From Candidatus Liptonbacteria bacterium (GTDB taxonomy: Bacteria > Patescibacteriota > Minisyncoccia > UBA6257 > 2-01-FULL-56-20), in contig JAHFLL010000001.1 in NCBI GenBank assembly GCA_023244895.1, positions 268,009 through 332,008 of the forward strand: 64,000 nucleotides of DNA, in the 5' to 3' direction. Under the pieces are notes generated by a model. That model was not told the origin of the DNA. It was given only the letters and a program-made list of their open reading frames with translations, and searched no databases. This document shows, in pieces, positions 6,141 to 14,079 of the stretch (within the stretch, counting starts at the first letter, position 1; each line of letters starts with the position of its first letter). The translations under genes were made by a program, and so were the position numbers.

Positions 6141-7217
6141 ATGAAGGGCGTGAATTTTCCGATATTCAATATTAAATCCGGAGAAGGCTCCAGGAAGTTT
6201 AATCTGAGTAGTCCCGCAGAGCGCAAAGAATACTTCGCGCAAAAAGCCGGACCAGAGATAGAAAAGATTAGGAAGTATTTGGCCGAGGGTAAGACCTTCG
6301 TGGGATTCCTGCTGGGCAAGAAGAACTCCGGCAAGGGGACTTATTCTAAATTGATAATGGAGGCGGTAGGAGGGGACAAGATTGGTCATGTCTCTATCGG
6401 CGACATTGTACGCGACGTGCATGGCAGTTTGTCTGATCCCGCCAAAAAGAAAGAACTAGGAGAATTCCTTTCCAAGAATTATCGCGGCTTTCACACCCTT
6501 GAAGAGATAGACGATTTAATTGAGGGTCGCAGTCAGTCCACGCTCGTATCCACAGAGCTGATTATCGCCCTTTTAAAATATGAAATTAGCAAGCGTCCCA
6601 GGCAGGCCATATTTATTGATGGTTTTCCGCGCGGTTTGGATCAGATTGCGTACTCAATGTTTTTGAAAGATGTTCTGGGCTACAGAAACGATCCCGACTT
6701 TTTAGTCTTTATAGATCTTCCGACGACAATAATAGAGGCACGCATCAAGACTCGCGTTATCTGCCCTATCTGCAAGGTTCCGCGCAGCACCAAGCTTATG
6801 GCTACAAGTGAGGCCGGATATGACGCGGAAAAGAAGGAATTCTATTTGATGTGTGATAATCCGGAGTGCAATAAGGCGCGCATGGTGCCTAAAGAAGGGG
6901 ACTCTCTCGGCATAGAGCCTATTCGAGACCGCTTGGAGCTGGATGAGAAAATAATCAAGCAGCTATTGGATGTGAGCGGTTGGTCTAAGATTTATTTGCG
7001 CAACGCTCTGCCGGCGGATAAAGCTTCAGAAGTTGTGGACGATTACGAAATAACTCCAATGTACGACTATGAGCTAGACGAGGCGTCCGGCAAGGTTAAG
7101 ATAAAAGAATCGGTTTGGACCGTCGCGGACGACGAGGGAGTGACCTCTTGCAGTCTTTTACCCCCGCCGGTGGTGGTTACTTTTCTAAAGCAGATTGTGC
7201 AAGCCCTAGGACTCTAA
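6141..7217 (+). CDS. Adenylate-kinase-like NMP kinase with N-terminal extension and Cys4 LID
   Basis: P-loop GKKNSGKGTYSKL. LID-like segment RVICPICK...CDNPEC...RDRLELDE. Confidence 0.45.
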   Translation: MKGVNFPIFNIKSGEGSRKFNLSSPAERKEYFAQKAGPEIEKIRKYLAEGKTFVGFLLGKKNSGKGTYSKLIMEAVGGDKIGHVSIGDIVRDVHGSLSDPAKKKELGEFLSKNYRGFHTLEEIDDLIEGRSQSTLVSTELIIALLKYEISKRPRQAIFIDGFPRGLDQIAYSMFLKDVLGYRNDPDFLVFIDLPTTIIEARIKTRVICPICKVPRSTKLMATSEAGYDAEKKEFYLMCDNPECNKARMVPKEGDSLGIEPIRDRLELDEKIIKQLLDVSGWSKIYLRNALPADKASEVVDDYEITPMYDYELDEASGKVKIKESVWTVADDEGVTSCSLLPPPVVVTFLKQIVQALGL

Positions 7218-7230
7218 CTTTCCGCTCGGC

Positions 7231-7941
7231 CTAGTATCTTTTGACGGTGTATTTGCGCTCCACAAACTGGAAAGCGCCGGATTTTATTATTTTAATGGTT
7301 TCATCCACCCCGTCGAAAACATCCGGCAACCTGAATATTTCCTCTTCTCTAGTCCAGGCATTTTTACCGCCTTCGATATTATCTCTTAGCGTGCCGGTGG
7401 GATTTTCTGTCTTTACTATGAAAAAATATTTATCTTCCAGTAATTCGCCTGATTCTGAATAGTCCATTTTGTGCTTTACGCCAGAGATGGATAATTCAGC
7501 GGAAAGCCCCGCCTCTTCCTGAAGCTCGCGCGCGGCAGTCTCTAAAATCGTCTCGCCCCAGCGCACCTTCCCCGTGATAAACCCATGATAACCAAAATAT
7601 GGCTGTTTGAGTCTCTGTTGTATCAAAAAAAGTTCTTCGCCATTCCCGCTGTTTTTTATACAAGAGACTGATACTCCCAGCTTGGCCTGTCGCTCAAAGA
7701 CCATTTGGGCGGAGTCGGTATCGAAGCGATTGGCGAATTCTTTGCCGGGCGCGGTGAGTTCGTAGCCCGCGTCGGTTTTACGGATAAGATTTAATTCCGC
7801 GAGCCGGCGTAGGTGAAAGCTAAATTGATCGCTAGAAACCCCTTCCACATTCAACTCCGAAAACTTGCGTTCCGGGTGAAATATTAACTCTTTCAATATC
7901 TTGGCCTGGATGGGGTGAATATCTGCTTGGTTTATAGACAT
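7231..7941 (-). CDS. Winged-helix HTH plus NUDIX hydrolase domain protein
   Basis: N-terminal HTH (LRRLAELNLIRK). Nudix box GKVRWGETILETAARELQEEAGL. Confidence 0.65.
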   Translation of the reverse strand: MSINQADIHPIQAKILKELIFHPERKFSELNVEGVSSDQFSFHLRRLAELNLIRKTDAGYELTAPGKEFANRFDTDSAQMVFERQAKLGVSVSCIKNSGNGEELFLIQQRLKQPYFGYHGFITGKVRWGETILETAARELQEEAGLSAELSISGVKHKMDYSESGELLEDKYFFIVKTENPTGTLRDNIEGGKNAWTREEEIFRLPDVFDGVDETIKIIKSGAFQFVERKYTVKRY

Positions 7942-7964
7942 ATTCCCATTTTAGACACGTCCGA

Positions 7965-8500
7965 CAACTTGTCTAGTGAAGTCGGGTTCACTAGATATTA
8001 AACGAGAACAGACCGACACGCATCGGGCATGTGGGTCTGTTTCTTCTTGCTACTGCTCTTGCGTCAGAGTCCCAGGAGTCGTCGCACGACTCCGCGAGGA
8101 TCCCCGTCGCCTTTCTGAAAAAACTCGGTTGCCCGGACGGGGAGCTTGTCGTACTCCGCGTAAGACATCGAGCTTGTCATCAGCGTCGGTGTGTCGGGGC
8201 TCTCCGCTTGAACTACGGCGACCACCGTATCTCCGTAGGGTCCGGGCGGCATCCGGTAGTCCACGATTGCGAGCTTGAATGGCTGGCCCGCCGCTACTGC
8301 CTCACGGATCTTGGAGATGGCCTCCGTCGCCCCGCCGGCCGTGACGATCTCGATCTCCGCACCGATGGTCTCGAGAAGTGCCCTCATCCCCACGAGAGCG
8401 ATTGGCGTATCATCTACCACGAGAATGCGTCTTATCATGGTTCCTGCCCCCCCTCTCTCTTCTGGAGGCCATTATATTATCCATGTCTTTTAAGTCAATT
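7965..8500. other. GC-rich island A (about 65% GC), carries the orphan receiver gene
   Basis: Sharp compositional shift relative to flanks. Own SD and terminator (CAGACC...GGTCTG plus U-run). Confidence 0.5.
8064..8438 (-). CDS. Single-domain response regulator (CheY-like receiver), inside GC-rich island A
   Basis: Motifs LVVDD and AIVDYRMP. About 65% GC. SD-like GAGGGGGGG sits upstream of the ATG. Confidence 0.6.
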   Translation of the reverse strand: MIRRILVVDDTPIALVGMRALLETIGAEIEIVTAGGATEAISKIREAVAAGQPFKLAIVDYRMPPGPYGDTVVAVVQAESPDTPTLMTSSMSYAEYDKLPVRATEFFQKGDGDPRGVVRRLLGL

Positions 8501-8512
8501 ATAAAAAAGGAC

Positions 8513-8548
8513 TTGACATTATATTTACTACGCTATACTATAGTATAG
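8513..8548 (+). promoter_or_regulatory. Promoter plus operator module 1: TTGACA-17-TACTAT overlapping the 16 bp perfect palindrome CTATACTATAGTATAG
   Basis: TTGACA at 8513-8518, -10 at 8536-8541, palindrome at 8533-8548. The ATG at 8550 implies a leaderless mRNA. Confidence 0.6.
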
Positions 8549-8549
8549 T

Positions 8550-8900
8550 ATGCAAAATAAAAAAATGAACAAGAAAGAAAAGTGGCAGAACGAGGATAGT
8601 GAGGAGTTATTTAAAGCCGTGCTTGGTCTTAAAAATACGTCCGAAGCTAGGGCTTTTTTTAGAGATCTTTTAACCGAGAAGGAGATTTTGGAGTTCGGTC
8701 AGCGCTGGAAGGTGGCCAGGATGTTGTCCGAGAGTGTTCCTTATTCAGAAATAGGGCATAGAACCTGGATGAGTCCCAGAACCATAGCGCGTATTCAAAA
8801 ATGGCTTAAAAGCGGGAGGGGCGGTTACCGCTTAGCAATTCATCGGTTGGAGCAGAAAGCGGGTAAAAGGCCCGTTGCTGGCAAGAAAAGAAACAGATAG
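8550..8900 (+). CDS. YerC/YecD family TrpR-like DNA-binding protein
   Basis: Motifs FFRDLLTEKEILEFGQRWKVARML, PRTIARIQKWL and SGRGGYRL match the YerC/TrpR-like pattern. Confidence 0.75.
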   Translation: MQNKKMNKKEKWQNEDSEELFKAVLGLKNTSEARAFFRDLLTEKEILEFGQRWKVARMLSESVPYSEIGHRTWMSPRTIARIQKWLKSGRGGYRLAIHRLEQKAGKRPVAGKKRNR

Positions 8901-8963: not shown

Positions 8964-8998
8964 TTGACTTTTTTATCCACCGCTATACTATAGTATAG
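8964..8998 (+). promoter_or_regulatory. Promoter plus operator module 2: TTGACT-16-TACTAT overlapping a second copy of the same 16 bp palindrome
   Basis: TTGACT at 8964-8969 and palindrome at 8983-8998. The shared 19-mer CGCTATACTATAGTATAGT matches module 1. Confidence 0.55.
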
Positions 8999-9004
8999 TG
9001 CACT

Positions 9005-9100
9005 ATCGGGGGTGACTACTGGGAGAGAGTAGAGAAGAGTAGAGGATAAGAGAGAAGAAGAGGAAGATAAGAAAGAAGAGAGAGGGTGGCGTGGGGTGGA
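9005..9100 (+). repeat. Polypurine (GA-rich) tract of about 95 nt
   Basis: Plus strand is almost entirely G/A (gagagagtagagaagagtagaggataagagagaagaagagg...). The two minus-strand ORFs across it are low-complexity artefacts. Confidence 0.7.
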
Positions 9101-9182
9101 ACACATTAGGTAGATGAGTGGGGTGAAATTGTAATGGGAGTACGAGCCGAGGGGCACTAGATTGGTTAAACAAGAGAACAAT

Positions 9183-9275
9183 ATGACTAAACAAAATATA
9201 AATTTTAATACGAGCGCCGGGCATCACAACCAACTCTTCCGAGAAGAGATTGGTTGTGGTTTTTATTTTTCTTAA
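9183..9275 (+). CDS. Candidate 30-aa leader peptide ORF running through a terminator hairpin
   Basis: ATG...TAA encodes MTKQNINFNTSAGHHNQLFREEIGCGFYFS. No SD, like host genes. Weak evidence. Confidence 0.2.
   Translation: MTKQNINFNTSAGHHNQLFREEIGCGFYFS
9225..9270 (+). terminator. Strong rho-independent terminator
   Basis: Hairpin CACAACCAACTCTTC / GAAGAGATTGGTTGTG followed by TTTTTATTTTT. Confidence 0.65.
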
Positions 9276-9310
9276 TAAGAAACAACACTCATTCTCCTCT
9301 CGGAAGTTCC

Positions 9311-9356
9311 GAGGGGTGTCGGCAAACCGAGCCCCTCACGAGAGGGGCTCTTTGAT
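9311..9356 (+). promoter_or_regulatory. Alternative-hairpin (attenuator-like) element upstream of the GCS2-like gene
   Basis: GAGGGGT (9311-9317), GCCCCTC (9331-9337) and GAGGGGC (9342-9348). The middle segment can pair with either flank. The perfect 9 bp stem GAGCCCCTC/GAGGGGCTC is followed by TTTG. Confidence 0.4.
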
Positions 9357-9382
9357 ATTGGCAGAACAAGAGGGAGGACGAT

Positions 9383-10396
9383 ATGAACGCTAAGGACCTG
9401 GTCCAGTACTTCACGCGCGGACTGAACGGGCTCTATGAGCTCGGAACAACAATCGGGATTGAGGTTGAGACCCAGTTCGTGGATCTGGGTGGTCGTGCCA
9501 TCCGGACGGAAATCGCCCAGCAGATCTTCCGGGGTTTCGTCGCTAGCGGTTGGAGGGTCGTGACGCGCAAGGGCGAGTTGCTGACGGAATTAATCTCTCC
9601 CGGGAATGATAGGTTGCTCTACGAGCTTGGCCGGCACAATTTGGAAATCAGTGCCGCGCCACGTCCCGCCGACGCGGTCGTCCCTGCCGTCCTGCGCTTA
9701 CTGGCGGAACTTTACGGCCAGGCTTGGAACTTGGGCGTTCGTCCGCTTCTTGCTCCGATCTTGGAGACGGAAGAGGACCTCCTGGTCGTGCCGGACGAAC
9801 GGGACGCGCAATGGGTAAGGACAGACGGGCGAAGCGCGCTCAATAATCTAACCAGATGCTCGGCGGTGCAGTTTACTATCGATGTGCCGCTCAAGGACGC
9901 GATACGCTGCGTCAATGTTCTGAACGAGATGAAATACTCCTTCCTGAACGAGTATCCCCAGGAGGAGTTGTGGCGGCGCTATATCAAGGAATCAGCCGCC
10001 ACCTATTCTCCCAGCCGCTACGGCGGTCCGGATCGCTTCGCCGATCTGGATGATTACTGCGCGAAACTGGCCGAGCATGGCGTGGTGCGAGACGGTAGGG
10101 TGGTGCCGTGCGAGTCGGCGGGGGAGGTGGATATCCCGCTCTTCCTGCGTTCAGTCTGGTGGTACTTCAGATTGAAGCGTTATGGTCCGAAGCTTTGCCT
10201 GGAAGTGCGCCCGTTCGCGCGGGGCAGGGATTCGAAAATCCAGGAGGATCTGGATCGGGTGCTGCAAATTCTGGGCATCTCCGGTCGGGAGCGCATGGAG
10301 CGAACGGTCGCCAGCCTTCGGGACAGTCTTGAGACACTGAAGTTCCAGGCGGTCCGCCGGCCCGTGTCTCTCGATTGGCCTTCGGGTGGTCACTAA
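9383..10396 (+). CDS. Carboxylate-amine ligase (GCS2/YbdK-like) family protein, GC-rich island B
   Basis: N-terminal TIGIEVETQFVD resembles the YbdK GIELEMQ motif. About 62% GC. Strong SD GAGGGAGGA 5 nt before the ATG. Confidence 0.4.
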   Translation: MNAKDLVQYFTRGLNGLYELGTTIGIEVETQFVDLGGRAIRTEIAQQIFRGFVASGWRVVTRKGELLTELISPGNDRLLYELGRHNLEISAAPRPADAVVPAVLRLLAELYGQAWNLGVRPLLAPILETEEDLLVVPDERDAQWVRTDGRSALNNLTRCSAVQFTIDVPLKDAIRCVNVLNEMKYSFLNEYPQEELWRRYIKESAATYSPSRYGGPDRFADLDDYCAKLAEHGVVRDGRVVPCESAGEVDIPLFLRSVWWYFRLKRYGPKLCLEVRPFARGRDSKIQEDLDRVLQILGISGRERMERTVASLRDSLETLKFQAVRRPVSLDWPSGGH

Positions 10397-10408
10397 ATCG
10401 CAAAGTAG

Positions 10409-10445
10409 TTGGGGCCGGACATCGTAGTCCGGCCCAATTTTTATA
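10409..10445 (+). terminator. Rho-independent terminator
   Basis: TTGGGGCCGGAC-ATCGTA-GTCCGGCCCAA followed by TTTTT. Confidence 0.65.
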
Positions 10446-10514
10446 TAGAAATAAATCAAAACCACCGTCCATCTGGGCGAAGTCCGTTACTAATGTGTCC
10501 TGTTCTGATCTCCG

Positions 10515-11237
10515 TTAAGATTGTTTCTTGAATGCTTCCACGATCTTGTCTAAATCTCCGTCCAAAATCTTCTCTATGTTATGAAACTTTTTACCGATGC
10601 GGTGGTCCGTAATCCTGTCTTCCGGGAAGTTGTAGGTACGAATCTTTTCGGAGCGGTCTGCACTACCAATTTGCTCGTTACGGTTCAGACCTGATTTTTT
10701 TGCCTCTTCTTCCATTTGAGCTTCGTGCAGCTTGGCCCGCAAAATTGTCATGGCGCGTTCGCGGTTGCCATGCTGGGAGCGTTCTACCCGGGAAGATATT
10801 ACGATGCCAGACGGTTTGTGAAGCACGCGTACCGCGCTTTCAATTTTATTCACATTCTGTCCGCCCGGCCCGCCTCCACGCGAGAAAGTTACTTCCAGAT
10901 CGCCTTCGTTTATTTGGACCTCTTTGGCTTCTACCTCCGGCATAATCGCGACGGATGCGGTAGAGGTGTGTACCCGGCCGGCTTTCTCGGTCTTAGGCAC
11001 TCTTTGTACGCGGTGCACGCCGGACTCCTGTTTTAGAGCGTCGTAGCAACCCTCGCCGGATATACCTGCCACAAAAGATTTATATCCGTATAAGGAAGTT
11101 TCGTTACTGTCTATTATGCTAAAGCCCCAGCCGCGCCTTTGGGCATACCTTTGATACATGCGCGCCAAGTCGCCCGCGAAGATGGCGGCTTCGTCTCCGC
11201 CCGCACCGGCTCTGATTTCTAAAATAATCTTATTCAT
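10515..11237 (-). CDS. prfA: Class I peptide chain release factor (RF1-like) lacking N-terminal domain 1
   Basis: GGQ motif SRGGGPGGQNVNK, RVQRVPKTEKAGRVHTS and an RF1-like C-terminus. The protein starts at RF1 domain 2 (ILEIRAGAGGDEA). An in-frame TAA sits 2 codons upstream of the ATG. Confidence 0.75.
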   Translation of the reverse strand: MNKIILEIRAGAGGDEAAIFAGDLARMYQRYAQRRGWGFSIIDSNETSLYGYKSFVAGISGEGCYDALKQESGVHRVQRVPKTEKAGRVHTSTASVAIMPEVEAKEVQINEGDLEVTFSRGGGPGGQNVNKIESAVRVLHKPSGIVISSRVERSQHGNRERAMTILRAKLHEAQMEEEAKKSGLNRNEQIGSADRSEKIRTYNFPEDRITDHRIGKKFHNIEKILDGDLDKIVEAFKKQS

Positions 11238-11484: not shown

Positions 11485-11866
11485 AGCTCGGACAGGCGCG
11501 CATGGGGTATCCTACGCGCCACGGGATGTGTGTCCCATCCGGGGCGGGGATGCTCTGGTCGTGCTGTTCAGTGTTGCCTCTGGGTAAGCGGCATGCTTTG
11601 CCGCTCGGTCTTTGGGCAACATTGCTCAGTTGCGGACGACTGGAGCATCTCCGTGTTTTCACAAGTCTTGATTCGGTGGGCGGTCTTGCTACTGGCAGGC
11701 ATCACCGCTTGAGGCGTGTGACCTCAGCCGAATCATGGGGCGCGGTCTGGTGGATTACCCAGGCTAGGCAGGCGGGGCAATGAAGCCAGCCGCGCCCTCT
11801 CATAGCGACCTCCGGAACCTACGGGAACCGGGGGTTTTGACTTATTTAGGGTCATATTCCAGCCAC

Positions 11867-11894
11867 TTGACATGGGCTGTGGATATGCTATAAT
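11867..11894 (+). promoter_or_regulatory. Consensus sigma70 promoter TTGACA-16-TATAAT
   Basis: ttgacatgggctgtggatatgcTATAAT, a perfect match to both hexamers. Confidence 0.6.
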
Positions 11895-11900
11895 GCATCT

Positions 11901-12500
11901 CAAGTGGGCGAGTGGGGATTCTTGGTCGGCGTCGGCTCTACGGAGCTACTGGCCACCTTCCCTCCCGAGCCTGCGGCGCTTTCGCCGCGTCGACTCGAGC
12001 GAGCGGGGGATTTCTTGGGCAGATTCGTCTGACCCACCCCCTCGTCCACAACCCTGCCGGCGGGTTCCACCGGTAATCGTTCTTGCGGGGCACAGCGCCG
12101 TCGGCACCGCGCACCGCCCCAAGACCATACGGGCCTGACCACATGGCCCACATTGGAAGGGAGGAAGAAAGTTCCGAAACCGAGACGTAGACGTTTGTGG
12201 AGGAGGGAAGACCAAATCTACAGATGGGTCTCGGGATGGCTGATCCCCATCCGGACGCGCTTCAAGGGATAAAATCCTAGGGCTAATAACCCGAAGCGTG
12301 AAAGTAGGATCGCAGGTAAGTAGGCGACCCAAAGCAGGGCGCCACCAACGGAGGTAACCACTCGGGAGTTCGCACGACCTTCGGGCCGGCGACGAGACGA
12401 CGGGGCACGCGCGACACGCATCCGCCCCAAACCCGAGAGAGCGATACTTCCAATCGGCGCCCTGCTATAGTCAACGGCCCCAGAGCATCAAAGCTCGGGG
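11901..12500 (+). ncRNA. Candidate GC-rich structured non-coding RNA of unknown family (about 600 nt)
   Basis: Lies downstream of the consensus promoter. No plausible ORF on either strand, only overlapping Arg/Pro-rich artefacts. The 5' GGGGAUUCUUGGUCGGCGUCGG loosely resembles a tmRNA 5' end, but no tag ORF or T-arm was found. Confidence 0.25.
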
Positions 12501-12581
12501 TCGTTTGCGTTTTGGGGATATGGTTCGCCCTCCCTTTCCTTTCCTGCTAGAATAACTTTTACTGGAAGATATAAATAAGCC

Positions 12582-13083: not shown

Positions 13084-14079
13084 ATGAAGAGCCCTTTAGT
13101 CAGCAGAATTTTAAAGAAGCTCGCCAAGCGGGCGGGCGTAAAAGTTAATCTGGAGCCGAACTGGGGTTTCGTTGGCCAGGTGGTTTTACCAGATGGTAGG
13201 AAAAGATATTTTAGAAATACTAGTTTAGATTTGAATCCGCTGGGCGCGTCGGAAGTTGCAAGAGATAAAGACTACTCCAATTATTTCATGGGTAAGATGG
13301 GCTACCCCATTGTACCCGGGAAATCTTTCTTTTCGGATAAGTTGTCTACCGCCTTAAAATCTAAACGAAATATAGATGCGGGCTGGCGTTACGCTCAAAA
13401 AATAGGTTTGCCGGTTATCGTAAAGCCAAACAGCCGCAGTCAGGGCGTGGGCGTGAGTAAGGTTTCAAACAAAAAAGATTTTTACGCCGCTGCTAAGTTT
13501 GTTTTTAAAAAAGACAACGTGATGCTGGTGCAGCGCGCGCTTACGGGCAAGGATTATCGCATCGTGGTTTTAGATAAGGAAGTCATCTCCGCTTACGAGC
13601 GCCTGCCGCTTACGGTTGTGGGGGACGGCAAAAGTAGTATTTCTAAACTACTGGGCTTGCTACAAAAGAAATTTACGAGGGAGGGGAGAGACACCATGAT
13701 TAATCCGGAAGATTTTCGGATTAAGGCCAAGCTTCGGAGGCAGGGGCTAAAAATGAATTTTGTACCCAAGAAAAATGAGAAAATAACTTTATTGGACAAT
13801 GCCAACCTATCGGCTGGGGGCATGGCGCTCGATGTCACCGAAATTATTCATCCGGGTTTTAAGAAAATTGCGATTAAGCTCACCCGGGATATGGGCCTGC
13901 GCTATTGCGGAGTGGATTTGATGGTGGTGGGTGACATAGCTAAAGCTCCTCTAAAATACTGGGTGCTGGAGATAAACGCGGCAGCAGGATTGGATCACTA
14001 TGTTTCTTTGGGTAAAAAACAAGCTCGCATTGTGAATGACCTGTATCTCAAAGTATTGCGCGCGATGAAAAAATCCTAA
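13084..14079 (+). CDS. ATP-grasp family ligase (RimK/GshB/cyanophycin-synthetase-like)
   Basis: Motifs NLSAGG, VIVKPNSRSQGVGV and DYRIVVLD, typical of the ATP-grasp fold. Confidence 0.55.
   Translation: MKSPLVSRILKKLAKRAGVKVNLEPNWGFVGQVVLPDGRKRYFRNTSLDLNPLGASEVARDKDYSNYFMGKMGYPIVPGKSFFSDKLSTALKSKRNIDAGWRYAQKIGLPVIVKPNSRSQGVGVSKVSNKKDFYAAAKFVFKKDNVMLVQRALTGKDYRIVVLDKEVISAYERLPLTVVGDGKSSISKLLGLLQKKFTREGRDTMINPEDFRIKAKLRRQGLKMNFVPKKNEKITLLDNANLSAGGMALDVTEIIHPGFKKIAIKLTRDMGLRYCGVDLMVVGDIAKAPLKYWVLEINAAAGLDHYVSLGKKQARIVNDLYLKVLRAMKKS

Follow-up and report, generated by a model that had tools for sequence, protein, structure and literature searches.

A compact ligase family of Patescibacteria as the predicted target of a histidine repressor and a histidine attenuator

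The TrpR-family protein YerC has been identified as HisR, a repressor which requires L-histidine, recognizes the 20-bp palindrome cacTTTAn6TAAAgtg and is often autoregulated; histidine-dependent DNA binding has been demonstrated only for HisR of Ruminococcus gnavus (PMC9413887). The locus described here lies in a 64,000-nt stretch of a Candidatus Liptonbacteria genome (contig JAHFLL010000001.1, positions 268,009 to 332,008; hereafter the window), in which a repressor gene of this kind and a structured leader precede a gene for a predicted carboxylate-amine ligase. Bacteria of the Candidate Phyla Radiation (CPR, or Patescibacteria) are believed to depend on hosts and to have no amino-acid biosynthesis of their own. 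To our knowledge, very little is known about how they sense nutrient shortage and respond to it. Judging from sequence, the ligase gene appears to be the constant target of a two-part histidine-limitation circuit. The best overall explanation, which we consider probable, is that it encodes a CPR-typical ATP-dependent amide ligase with the fold of glutamate-cysteine ligases (GCLs), induced by histidine limitation via HisR and an attenuator and working with amide-cleaving partners.

The ligase gene was called in the window as a 337-aa open reading frame (ORF) with an ATG start. The ORF, its perfect Shine-Dalgarno sequence and the GIEVETQ core pointed out in an earlier note on this DNA were all found, the last as IGIEVETQF at residues 24-32 in the N-terminal strand. 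The note let the feature run from 9383 to 10445; its start is correct, but the stop codon lies at 10396, and 10445 is the end of the terminator. Similarly, the contrast in GC content to the surroundings was confirmed, but the figure of about 62% was not: the ORF has 59.6% GC compared with 48.2% for the whole window. The gene is judged to be genuine by its conservation: homologues number 197 at E <= 1e-3, and an alignment of 52 sequences has 38 invariant columns, including E27, E29, E88, R140, Q163, R263, E274 and R276. Most of the homologues are about 295 aa long and 44-55% identical, and the nearest full-length ones share only about 55% identity with the window protein. All of them are unnamed or labelled "hypothetical"; where a source is named, it is one of the Jorgensen-, Moran-, Sacchari- or other Patescibacteria.

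At E <= 1, the protein matched no Pfam-A or NCBIfam family, the GCS2 and YbdK models included. The search with the GCS2 model (PF04107), which the earlier note had proposed as a check, thus gave no match for the window protein, and weak matches were found in only five of 52 relatives (best E 0.0035). The PDB sequence library yielded nothing meaningful with either the single protein or the family profile; a match to AnkX (E 0.24) was dismissed as noise. A further proposed check, structure prediction followed by a structural search, did reveal a GCL-type fold. The AF2 model reached a pLDDT of 92.3 and a pTM of 0.85, and the closest structures found by Foldseek were all GCLs, the plant-type GCL being the nearest with 17% identity.

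Homology to bona fide GCS2 members is also detectable. An exhaustive family-profile search of 1.84 billion representatives returned only 135 clusters, the weakest members of which (E 1e-4 to 1e-6) were true PF04107 proteins; one weak member was a plant-type GCL (E 1.5e-83 to 9ufc, 6gmo and 2gwc). HHalign aligned the ligase family with PF04107-positive proteins over 286 columns (99.3% probability, E 4.1e-20), and E27, E29, E88, Q163, R263, E274 and R276 mapped to invariant or conserved GCS2 positions. In particular, E27, E29, E88, Q163, E274 and R276 align with GCS2 E37, E39, E99, Q180 and the E..R of "EVRLK..iEfR". The GCL/glutamine synthetase (GS)-type catalytic fold is accompanied by the expected metal and phosphate ligands: the ExE strand, a second Glu, a Gln and the C-terminal "R..E.R". 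Since no curated model matches the protein, the name "ligase" rests on the fold and the aligned residues. The earlier assignment as a GCS2/YbdK-like ligase holds at the level of fold and superfamily, not of membership. We regard the protein as a "minimal" GCL/GS-fold enzyme of about 295 residues, closest to plant-type GCL and belonging to a compact family which no existing model covers; residues 298-337 are common only to the window and its sister genome. The fold and the conserved residues predict that the enzyme would use ATP and Mg2+ to form an acyl-phosphate from a carboxylate, for which the gamma-carboxyl of glutamate is the most likely candidate, and would then join it to an amine.

The repressor gene upstream of the ligase scored above the TIGR02531 YerC/YecD cut-off, and since YerC has been equated with HisR (PMC9413887), its product is taken to be a HisR orthologue. 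The earlier note had tied a regulated leader to a TrpR-like repressor; both do lie upstream of the ligase, but neither the HisR identity nor the histidine codons of an attenuator were recognized there. A scan for the box ACTTTAn6TAAAGT with <=2 mismatches, which matches the published HisR consensus, gave 86 hits in 716 kb. Half of them (43) lie upstream of two kinds of gene: 33 immediately precede hisR, typically at a distance of 7 nt from the start codon and in some loci as two tandem boxes, and the others stand just before an AstE-like gene in 10 loci, which places the AstE-like deacylase in the same regulon. In the window, CTATACTATAGTATAG stands where the relatives have the canonical box. 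It occurs in exactly two exact copies in 64 kb, compared with 0.13 copies expected by chance at <=3 mismatches. The hisR ATG (8550) lies 9 nt past the -10 hexamer. Starts of hisR and AstE-like genes were generally only about 7-9 nt past the HisR box or -10 hexamer (L001-L051 and window 8541-8550), so their mRNAs are probably leaderless; that of the window hisR would be leaderless or nearly so.

The other part of the circuit is a leader, which precedes the ligase in practically all loci. Thirty-four leaders were aligned, and a covariance model built from this alignment (R1) was searched over 763 kb. The elements are arranged in the order CAT CAT CAC, hairpin A:B (ACAACUCU..AGGGUUGU), a stop codon 3 nt past B, hairpin C:D (AACCCCCUCC..GGAGGGGGUU) with a U run, a third hairpin and the Shine-Dalgarno sequence. 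All 34 leaders contain an open frame with clustered histidine codons, 2-5 in number, immediately 5' of hairpin A:B. In the hisR-bearing loci, about half of the total, these codons are the end of hisR (..KLHHHNSIQSRRGLS*), and in the other loci they belong to mini-ORFs of 17-45 codons with the same ending (..NFYHHNFLFLGRGLS*, ..KKHHHYNFSLLERELF*). The leader sequence is kept although the flanking proteins are only 45-50% identical.

The leader alignment supports both forms of the RNA. In the terminator form, 78.8% of the cells are paired, with covariation above that of shuffled and slid controls; for the antiterminator B:C the value is 81.8%, as compared with 42-61% when slid, and compensatory GC/AU changes are found. 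At E < 1e-4, R1 gave 52 hits, all ending at the ligase start and including about 20 loci outside the seed, and no hit elsewhere in the 763 kb. No Rfam family was found for the leader, and His_leader (RF00514) gave no hit at E <= 1 in the window or in five loci. Weak matches to mir-247 reflect the long hairpin only, and this identity was rejected. In a folding simulation, masking of A, corresponding to a ribosome stalled at the histidine codons, led to B:C without a terminator in 21 of the 34 leaders, and masking of B, corresponding to a ribosome at the stop codon, led to the terminator in 33. This behaviour follows the logic of classical leader-peptide attenuation, according to which expression is predicted when tRNA-His is poorly charged. 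With its clustered-histidine frame and mutually exclusive helices, the leader is most probably a ribosome-mediated histidine attenuator.

Weak R1 hits (20-30 bits) were also obtained in the gap between a GATase gene and a 255-aa GCS2 gene in L057 (9828-9974), L027 (9869-10051), L037 (9811-9957), L018 (9770-9917) and L015 (9758-9918). This suggests that a second, diverged histidine leader may precede the paralogous GCS2 ligase in these five operons.

The leader of the window itself has been rearranged. The comparison with a sister contig (L061), which has about 85% DNA identity to the window, delimits an insertion: blastn aligned L061 1-2098 with window 6742-8831 and L061 2132-3970 with window 9235-11091. 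The inserted segment removes the histidine-codon tail from hisR, giving the repressor a new C-terminus, and brings a second promoter-like site, a second operator and a purine-rich stretch. The mini-ORF that precedes the ligase is a homologue both of the hisR tail ..LHHHNSIQSRRGLS* and of the mini-ORFs found at other loci. The folding of the window leader is strong (z -5.7), and positions 9200-9385 fit R1 with 51.4 bits (E 1.4e-7). The purine-rich (GA-rich) stretch occupies 9003-9182, between the second promoter-like site and the mini-ORF; the long ORFs on its opposite strand look spurious.

To examine the surroundings of the ligase, ORFs were called at every locus and grouped by clustering. 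When one genome per species was scanned, 53 ligase loci were obtained, of which 52 non-redundant ones were used for the counts. A TrpR-family gene (hisR) is immediately 5' of the ligase on the same strand in 28 of them. Nearby genes encode an AstE/AspA-type zinc deacylase (15 loci), a class-I GATase/peptidase-C26 protein (10), GGACT/AIG2-type gamma-glutamyl cyclotransferases (9), a 255-aa true GCS2 protein (8), a 469-aa GCS2-like protein (7), an ArgE/DapE-type M20 deacylase (7) and histidyl-tRNA synthetase (HisRS; 6). At least one amide-cleaving partner, that is, a deacylase or a gamma-glutamyl-cleaving enzyme, was found within three genes of the ligase in 39 of the 52 loci, and no intermediate-modifying enzyme recurred in the clustered neighbourhoods. 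Elsewhere, enzymes of the AstE, ArgE/DapE/LysK, PuuD and BtrG types are known to strip N-acyl or gamma-glutamyl groups. Since all four partner families remove such groups, a protect/deprotect or gamma-glutamyl-cycle-like route is the most economical reading, and it may be supposed that the partner hydrolases are functionally linked to the product of the ligase.

The GGACT/AIG2-like partners lie downstream of the ligase and are nearly free of histidine (0.1-0.2% compared with 1.8% in other ORFs; L024, L038, L041, L045, L048 and L049 (c9), L008, L039 and L047 (c24)). Such a low content would fit proteins made under histidine starvation.

Taken together, these elements suggest the following mechanism. 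HisR would bind its own promoter, at the palindrome that overlaps the -10 hexamer, and, in the window, also the second promoter in front of the ligase leader. The histidine codons lie at the foot of A:B, with the stop codon just past B, terminator C:D beyond it, and B able to pair with C. A ribosome stalling at the histidine codons would free B, which would then sequester C, so that no terminator would form and the ligase would be transcribed. Induction of the ligase on histidine limitation is thus predicted. The amide made by the ligase could later be opened by the accompanying AstE/AspA-type, ArgE/DapE M20, class-I GATase/C26 or GGACT enzyme, in a "protect/deprotect" or gamma-glutamyl-cycle-like route that would raise or spare the histidine supply. 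Going further, we propose only tentatively, as a possibility about which we are doubtful, that the ligase and its accompanying deacylase (AstE/AspA-like, M20, C26 GATase or GGACT) form a new CPR pathway of histidine salvage or sparing with a gamma-glutamyl (acyl) protecting group, controlled by a circuit that uses the repressor's own 3' codons as the leader peptide. If this is true, free histidine (via HisR) and charged tRNA-His (via the ribosome) would be sensed on one transcript.

Several points weigh against this explanation. The ligase would be induced under histidine scarcity without any obvious histidine-yielding chemistry, and the protein lacks a match to any curated family model. The leader alignments were in part fitted to the proposed structure, a simple minimum free energy (MFE) switch was not reproduced in 13 of the 34 leaders, and the masking simulation of the window leader left the last terminator (9329-9350) intact. 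Moreover, the window operator CTATACTATAGTATAG deviates from the HisR consensus, and no AstE, C26, GCS2, M20, GGACT or HisRS homologue was found within the 64-kb window.

An alternative is that the upstream hairpins are a mere terminator of hisR and the histidine run a structural tail of the repressor, with no attenuation of the ligase. The histidine codons do lie inside hisR in 28 loci, C:D with its U run looks like a normal terminator, and the last terminator of the window stays closed in the simulation. A mere terminator of hisR is nevertheless improbable, given that the same leader, with a mini-ORF, occurs where hisR is not adjacent upstream, that the alternative helix B:C is kept with compensatory changes, that the intergenic sequence is conserved despite the divergence of the flanking proteins, and that weaker leader copies are also found before the GCS2 paralogue. 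The position of the ligase behind the repressor might also be accidental if the gene were a recently acquired horizontal passenger, as the earlier note had supposed. Its GC3 (GC content at third codon positions) of 71.6% (0.716), compared with 0.52 +/- 0.03 in ten neighbouring ORFs (z = 7.5), the insertion of about 400 nt just 5' of it and the low identity of its nearest full-length homologues speak for such an origin. In the sister contig, however, the genes follow one another as in the window (NUDIX, response regulator, hisR, ligase, release-factor gene), and the GC contrast recurs there (ligase 58.6%, hisR 44.9%). Over the 52 loci, the excess in GC content of the ligase over its flanks has a median of 3.9 points and reaches 14, so that the +11.4 of the window is high but not unique; high GC content was therefore ruled out as a mark of recent transfer. 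Furthermore, the hisR-ligase pair occurs in several CPR classes, and the homologous leader stands in front of the ligase everywhere. The 53 loci all come from metagenome-assembled genomes of Patescibacteria type (Uhr-, Jorgensen-, Kaiser-, Yanofsky-, Collier-, Doudna-, Peri-, Saccharibacteria and Paceibacterota); a few binned assemblies have other labels, five loci being tagged Pseudomonadales or Bdellovibrionales. The family is thus nearly specific to CPR bacteria, and a ligase that the earlier note had found unexpected in a minimal genome is typical of such genomes. Recent horizontal acquisition is accordingly not supported, and we rate it as quite improbable.

The nature of the enzyme allows two further readings. 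It might be a genuine gamma-glutamylcysteine ligase for a low-molecular-weight thiol, with the GGACT/ChaC-like, C26 and M20 neighbours degrading glutathione or serving a gamma-glutamyl cycle. The exclusively GCL-type structural neighbours, the kept catalytic residues, the fact that every partner family has members in glutathione turnover, and a ligase gene resembling the C-terminal ATP-grasp part of GshAB 2.7 kb downstream in the window are in agreement with this. Thiol synthesis would offer no rationale for control by histidine codons and HisR, the ATP-grasp gene is not a recurrent neighbour, and the protein has about 130 residues fewer than plant GCL, shares only 17% identity with it and has no GCS2 match; we therefore consider a thiol ligase unlikely. 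A protein or peptide ligase similar to the Pup ligase PafA could mark proteins for degradation so that their amino acids are recycled, with the remaining gamma-Glu-Lys isopeptides then cleared by GGACT or peptidases. Neither close structural similarity to the Pup ligase and depupylase (PafA, Dop) nor a Pup-like partner was found for the ligase, and this reading seems very improbable. An amide ligase of GCL fold under histidine control is thus preferred.

The finding is real and is more interesting than the earlier note proposed, and the reason is the regulation. Dozens of species from several CPR classes appear to have one uncharacterized enzyme family under the control of a histidine-limitation circuit with two layers. 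This offers a concrete, testable regulon in these bacteria and a candidate for an unrecognized histidine-related reaction. The attenuator would be of unusual design, the C-terminal codons of a repressor doubling as the leader peptide. Both the alignment of the ligase family and the RNA motif are outside the current releases of Pfam, NCBIfam and Rfam, and our literature search found nothing linking GCS2-type ligases, CPR bacteria and histidine control.

The features of the window are listed in Table 1. The response-regulator gene divergent from hisR is as GC-rich as the ligase gene (61%, GC3 0.71), and in several other loci, too, the ligase has response regulators and 7TM-GAF histidine kinases in its vicinity, e.g. 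in L001, L004, L034 and L041. The ATP-grasp gene was considered as a conserved partner catalysing a second step similar to that of glutathione synthetase; it clusters with no other locus, and this role was ruled out. The candidate large non-coding RNA has an MFE z-score of -3.95; it matches no Rfam family at E <= 10, and neither a tRNA nor a tmRNA was found in it. In the sister contig, the ligase (L061 2271-3274) is split into ORFs of 131 and 202 aa by a deletion of about 10 nt, which indicates either a pseudogene or an assembly error.

Table 1 Features of the hisR-ligase region, in coordinates of the window
Feature	Position	Strand	Remarks
Single-domain response-regulator gene	8064-8438	-	Divergent from hisR; strong promoter-like site 8498-8471
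Promoter-like site of hisR	8513-8541	+	TTGACA-17-TACTAT
Operator 1 (putative)	8533-8548		Perfect 16-bp palindrome CTATACTATAGTATAG; overlaps -10 hexamer of hisR promoter
hisR/yerC-like TrpR-family repressor gene	8550-8900	+	116 aa; PF01371 E 1.7e-17; TIGR02531 YerC/YecD 67.5 bits (cut-off 42.2)
Segment of ~400 nt absent from L061	8832-9234	+	Inside hisR 3' end
Second promoter-like site	8964-8991	+	TTGACT-16-TACTAT; for leader and ligase
Operator 2 (putative)	8983-8998		Second exact copy of CTATACTATAGTATAG; overlaps -10 hexamer of second promoter
Leader mini-ORF	9183-9275	+	MTKQNINFNTSAGHHNQLFREEIGCGFYFS*; 30 codons; His codons CAT CAC at 9222-9227
Hairpin P0	9223-9260	+	17 bp; begins at His codons; followed by U run 9262-9272; corresponds to family helix A:B
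Hairpin X	9296-9316	+	CCUCUCGG / CCGAGGGG
Terminator-like hairpin	9329-9359	+	GAGCCCCUC/GAGGGGCUC + UUUGAUAUU; hairpin 9329-9350; just 5' of ligase
Shine-Dalgarno sequence	9371-9376	+	GGGAGG; 6 bases 5' of ligase ATG
GCL-fold carboxylate-amine ligase gene (predicted)	9383-10396	+	337 aa; conserved core residues 1-297; lineage-specific tail residues 298-337
Intrinsic terminator of ligase gene	10412-10445	+	Stem 10412-10435, then T run
Candidate large non-coding RNA	11866-12520		TTGACA-17-TATAAT promoter-like site, then ~620 nt GC-rich (59%), ORF-poor; closing hairpin and U run
ATP-grasp ligase gene	13084-14079		331 aa; 2.7 kb downstream of ligase; resembles ATP-grasp part of cyanophycin synthetase and GshAB C-terminal domain

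Among described enzymes, the plant-type (group 3) GCLs such as that of Brassica juncea (PDB 2GWC) are the nearest. They have 430-450 aa as compared with the core of about 295 aa here; the CPR ligase lacks their C-terminal regulatory region as well as a PF04107 match, and it differs from them also by its near confinement to CPR bacteria and by the histidine-type regulation. In comparison with the YbdK/GCS2 ligases (PF04107; PDB 1R8G, 1TT4), the protein reaches none of the GCS2, YbdK or NCBIfam models, and some of the same operons carry, as a separate gene, a true GCS2 paralogue of 255 aa. The pairs PuuA/PuuD, BtrJ/BtrG and LysX/LysK are generally known to combine an ATP-dependent ligase with a C26 hydrolase, a gamma-glutamyl cyclotransferase or an M20 deacylase, and the hydrolase families of these pairs are those alternating beside the CPR ligase. 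The ligases of those systems are, however, of GS or ATP-grasp type, and intermediate-modifying enzymes are co-encoded with them; no such modifying enzymes recur at the CPR loci.

The regulation is comparable to the HisR regulons and His-leader attenuators of Firmicutes and Proteobacteria (PMC9413887; RF00514). Common to both are a TrpR-family HisR, the 20-bp palindrome cacTTTAn6TAAAgtg (at CPR loci other than the window) and autoregulation, predicted for the CPR loci, as well as a leader peptide with 3-5 histidine codons beside terminator and antiterminator hairpins. The CPR circuit differs in that its putative target is a GCL-fold ligase instead of histidine biosynthesis or a transporter, in bacteria generally held to lack histidine synthesis. 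It also differs in that hisR itself often supplies the histidine codons with its 3' end, in the missing Rfam match and in the different palindrome of the window. A GCL-fold ligase and a leader-peptide attenuator are thus each of a known kind; what is new is a CPR-typical, unmodelled branch of the GCLs that appears as the fixed target of HisR combined with an attenuator.
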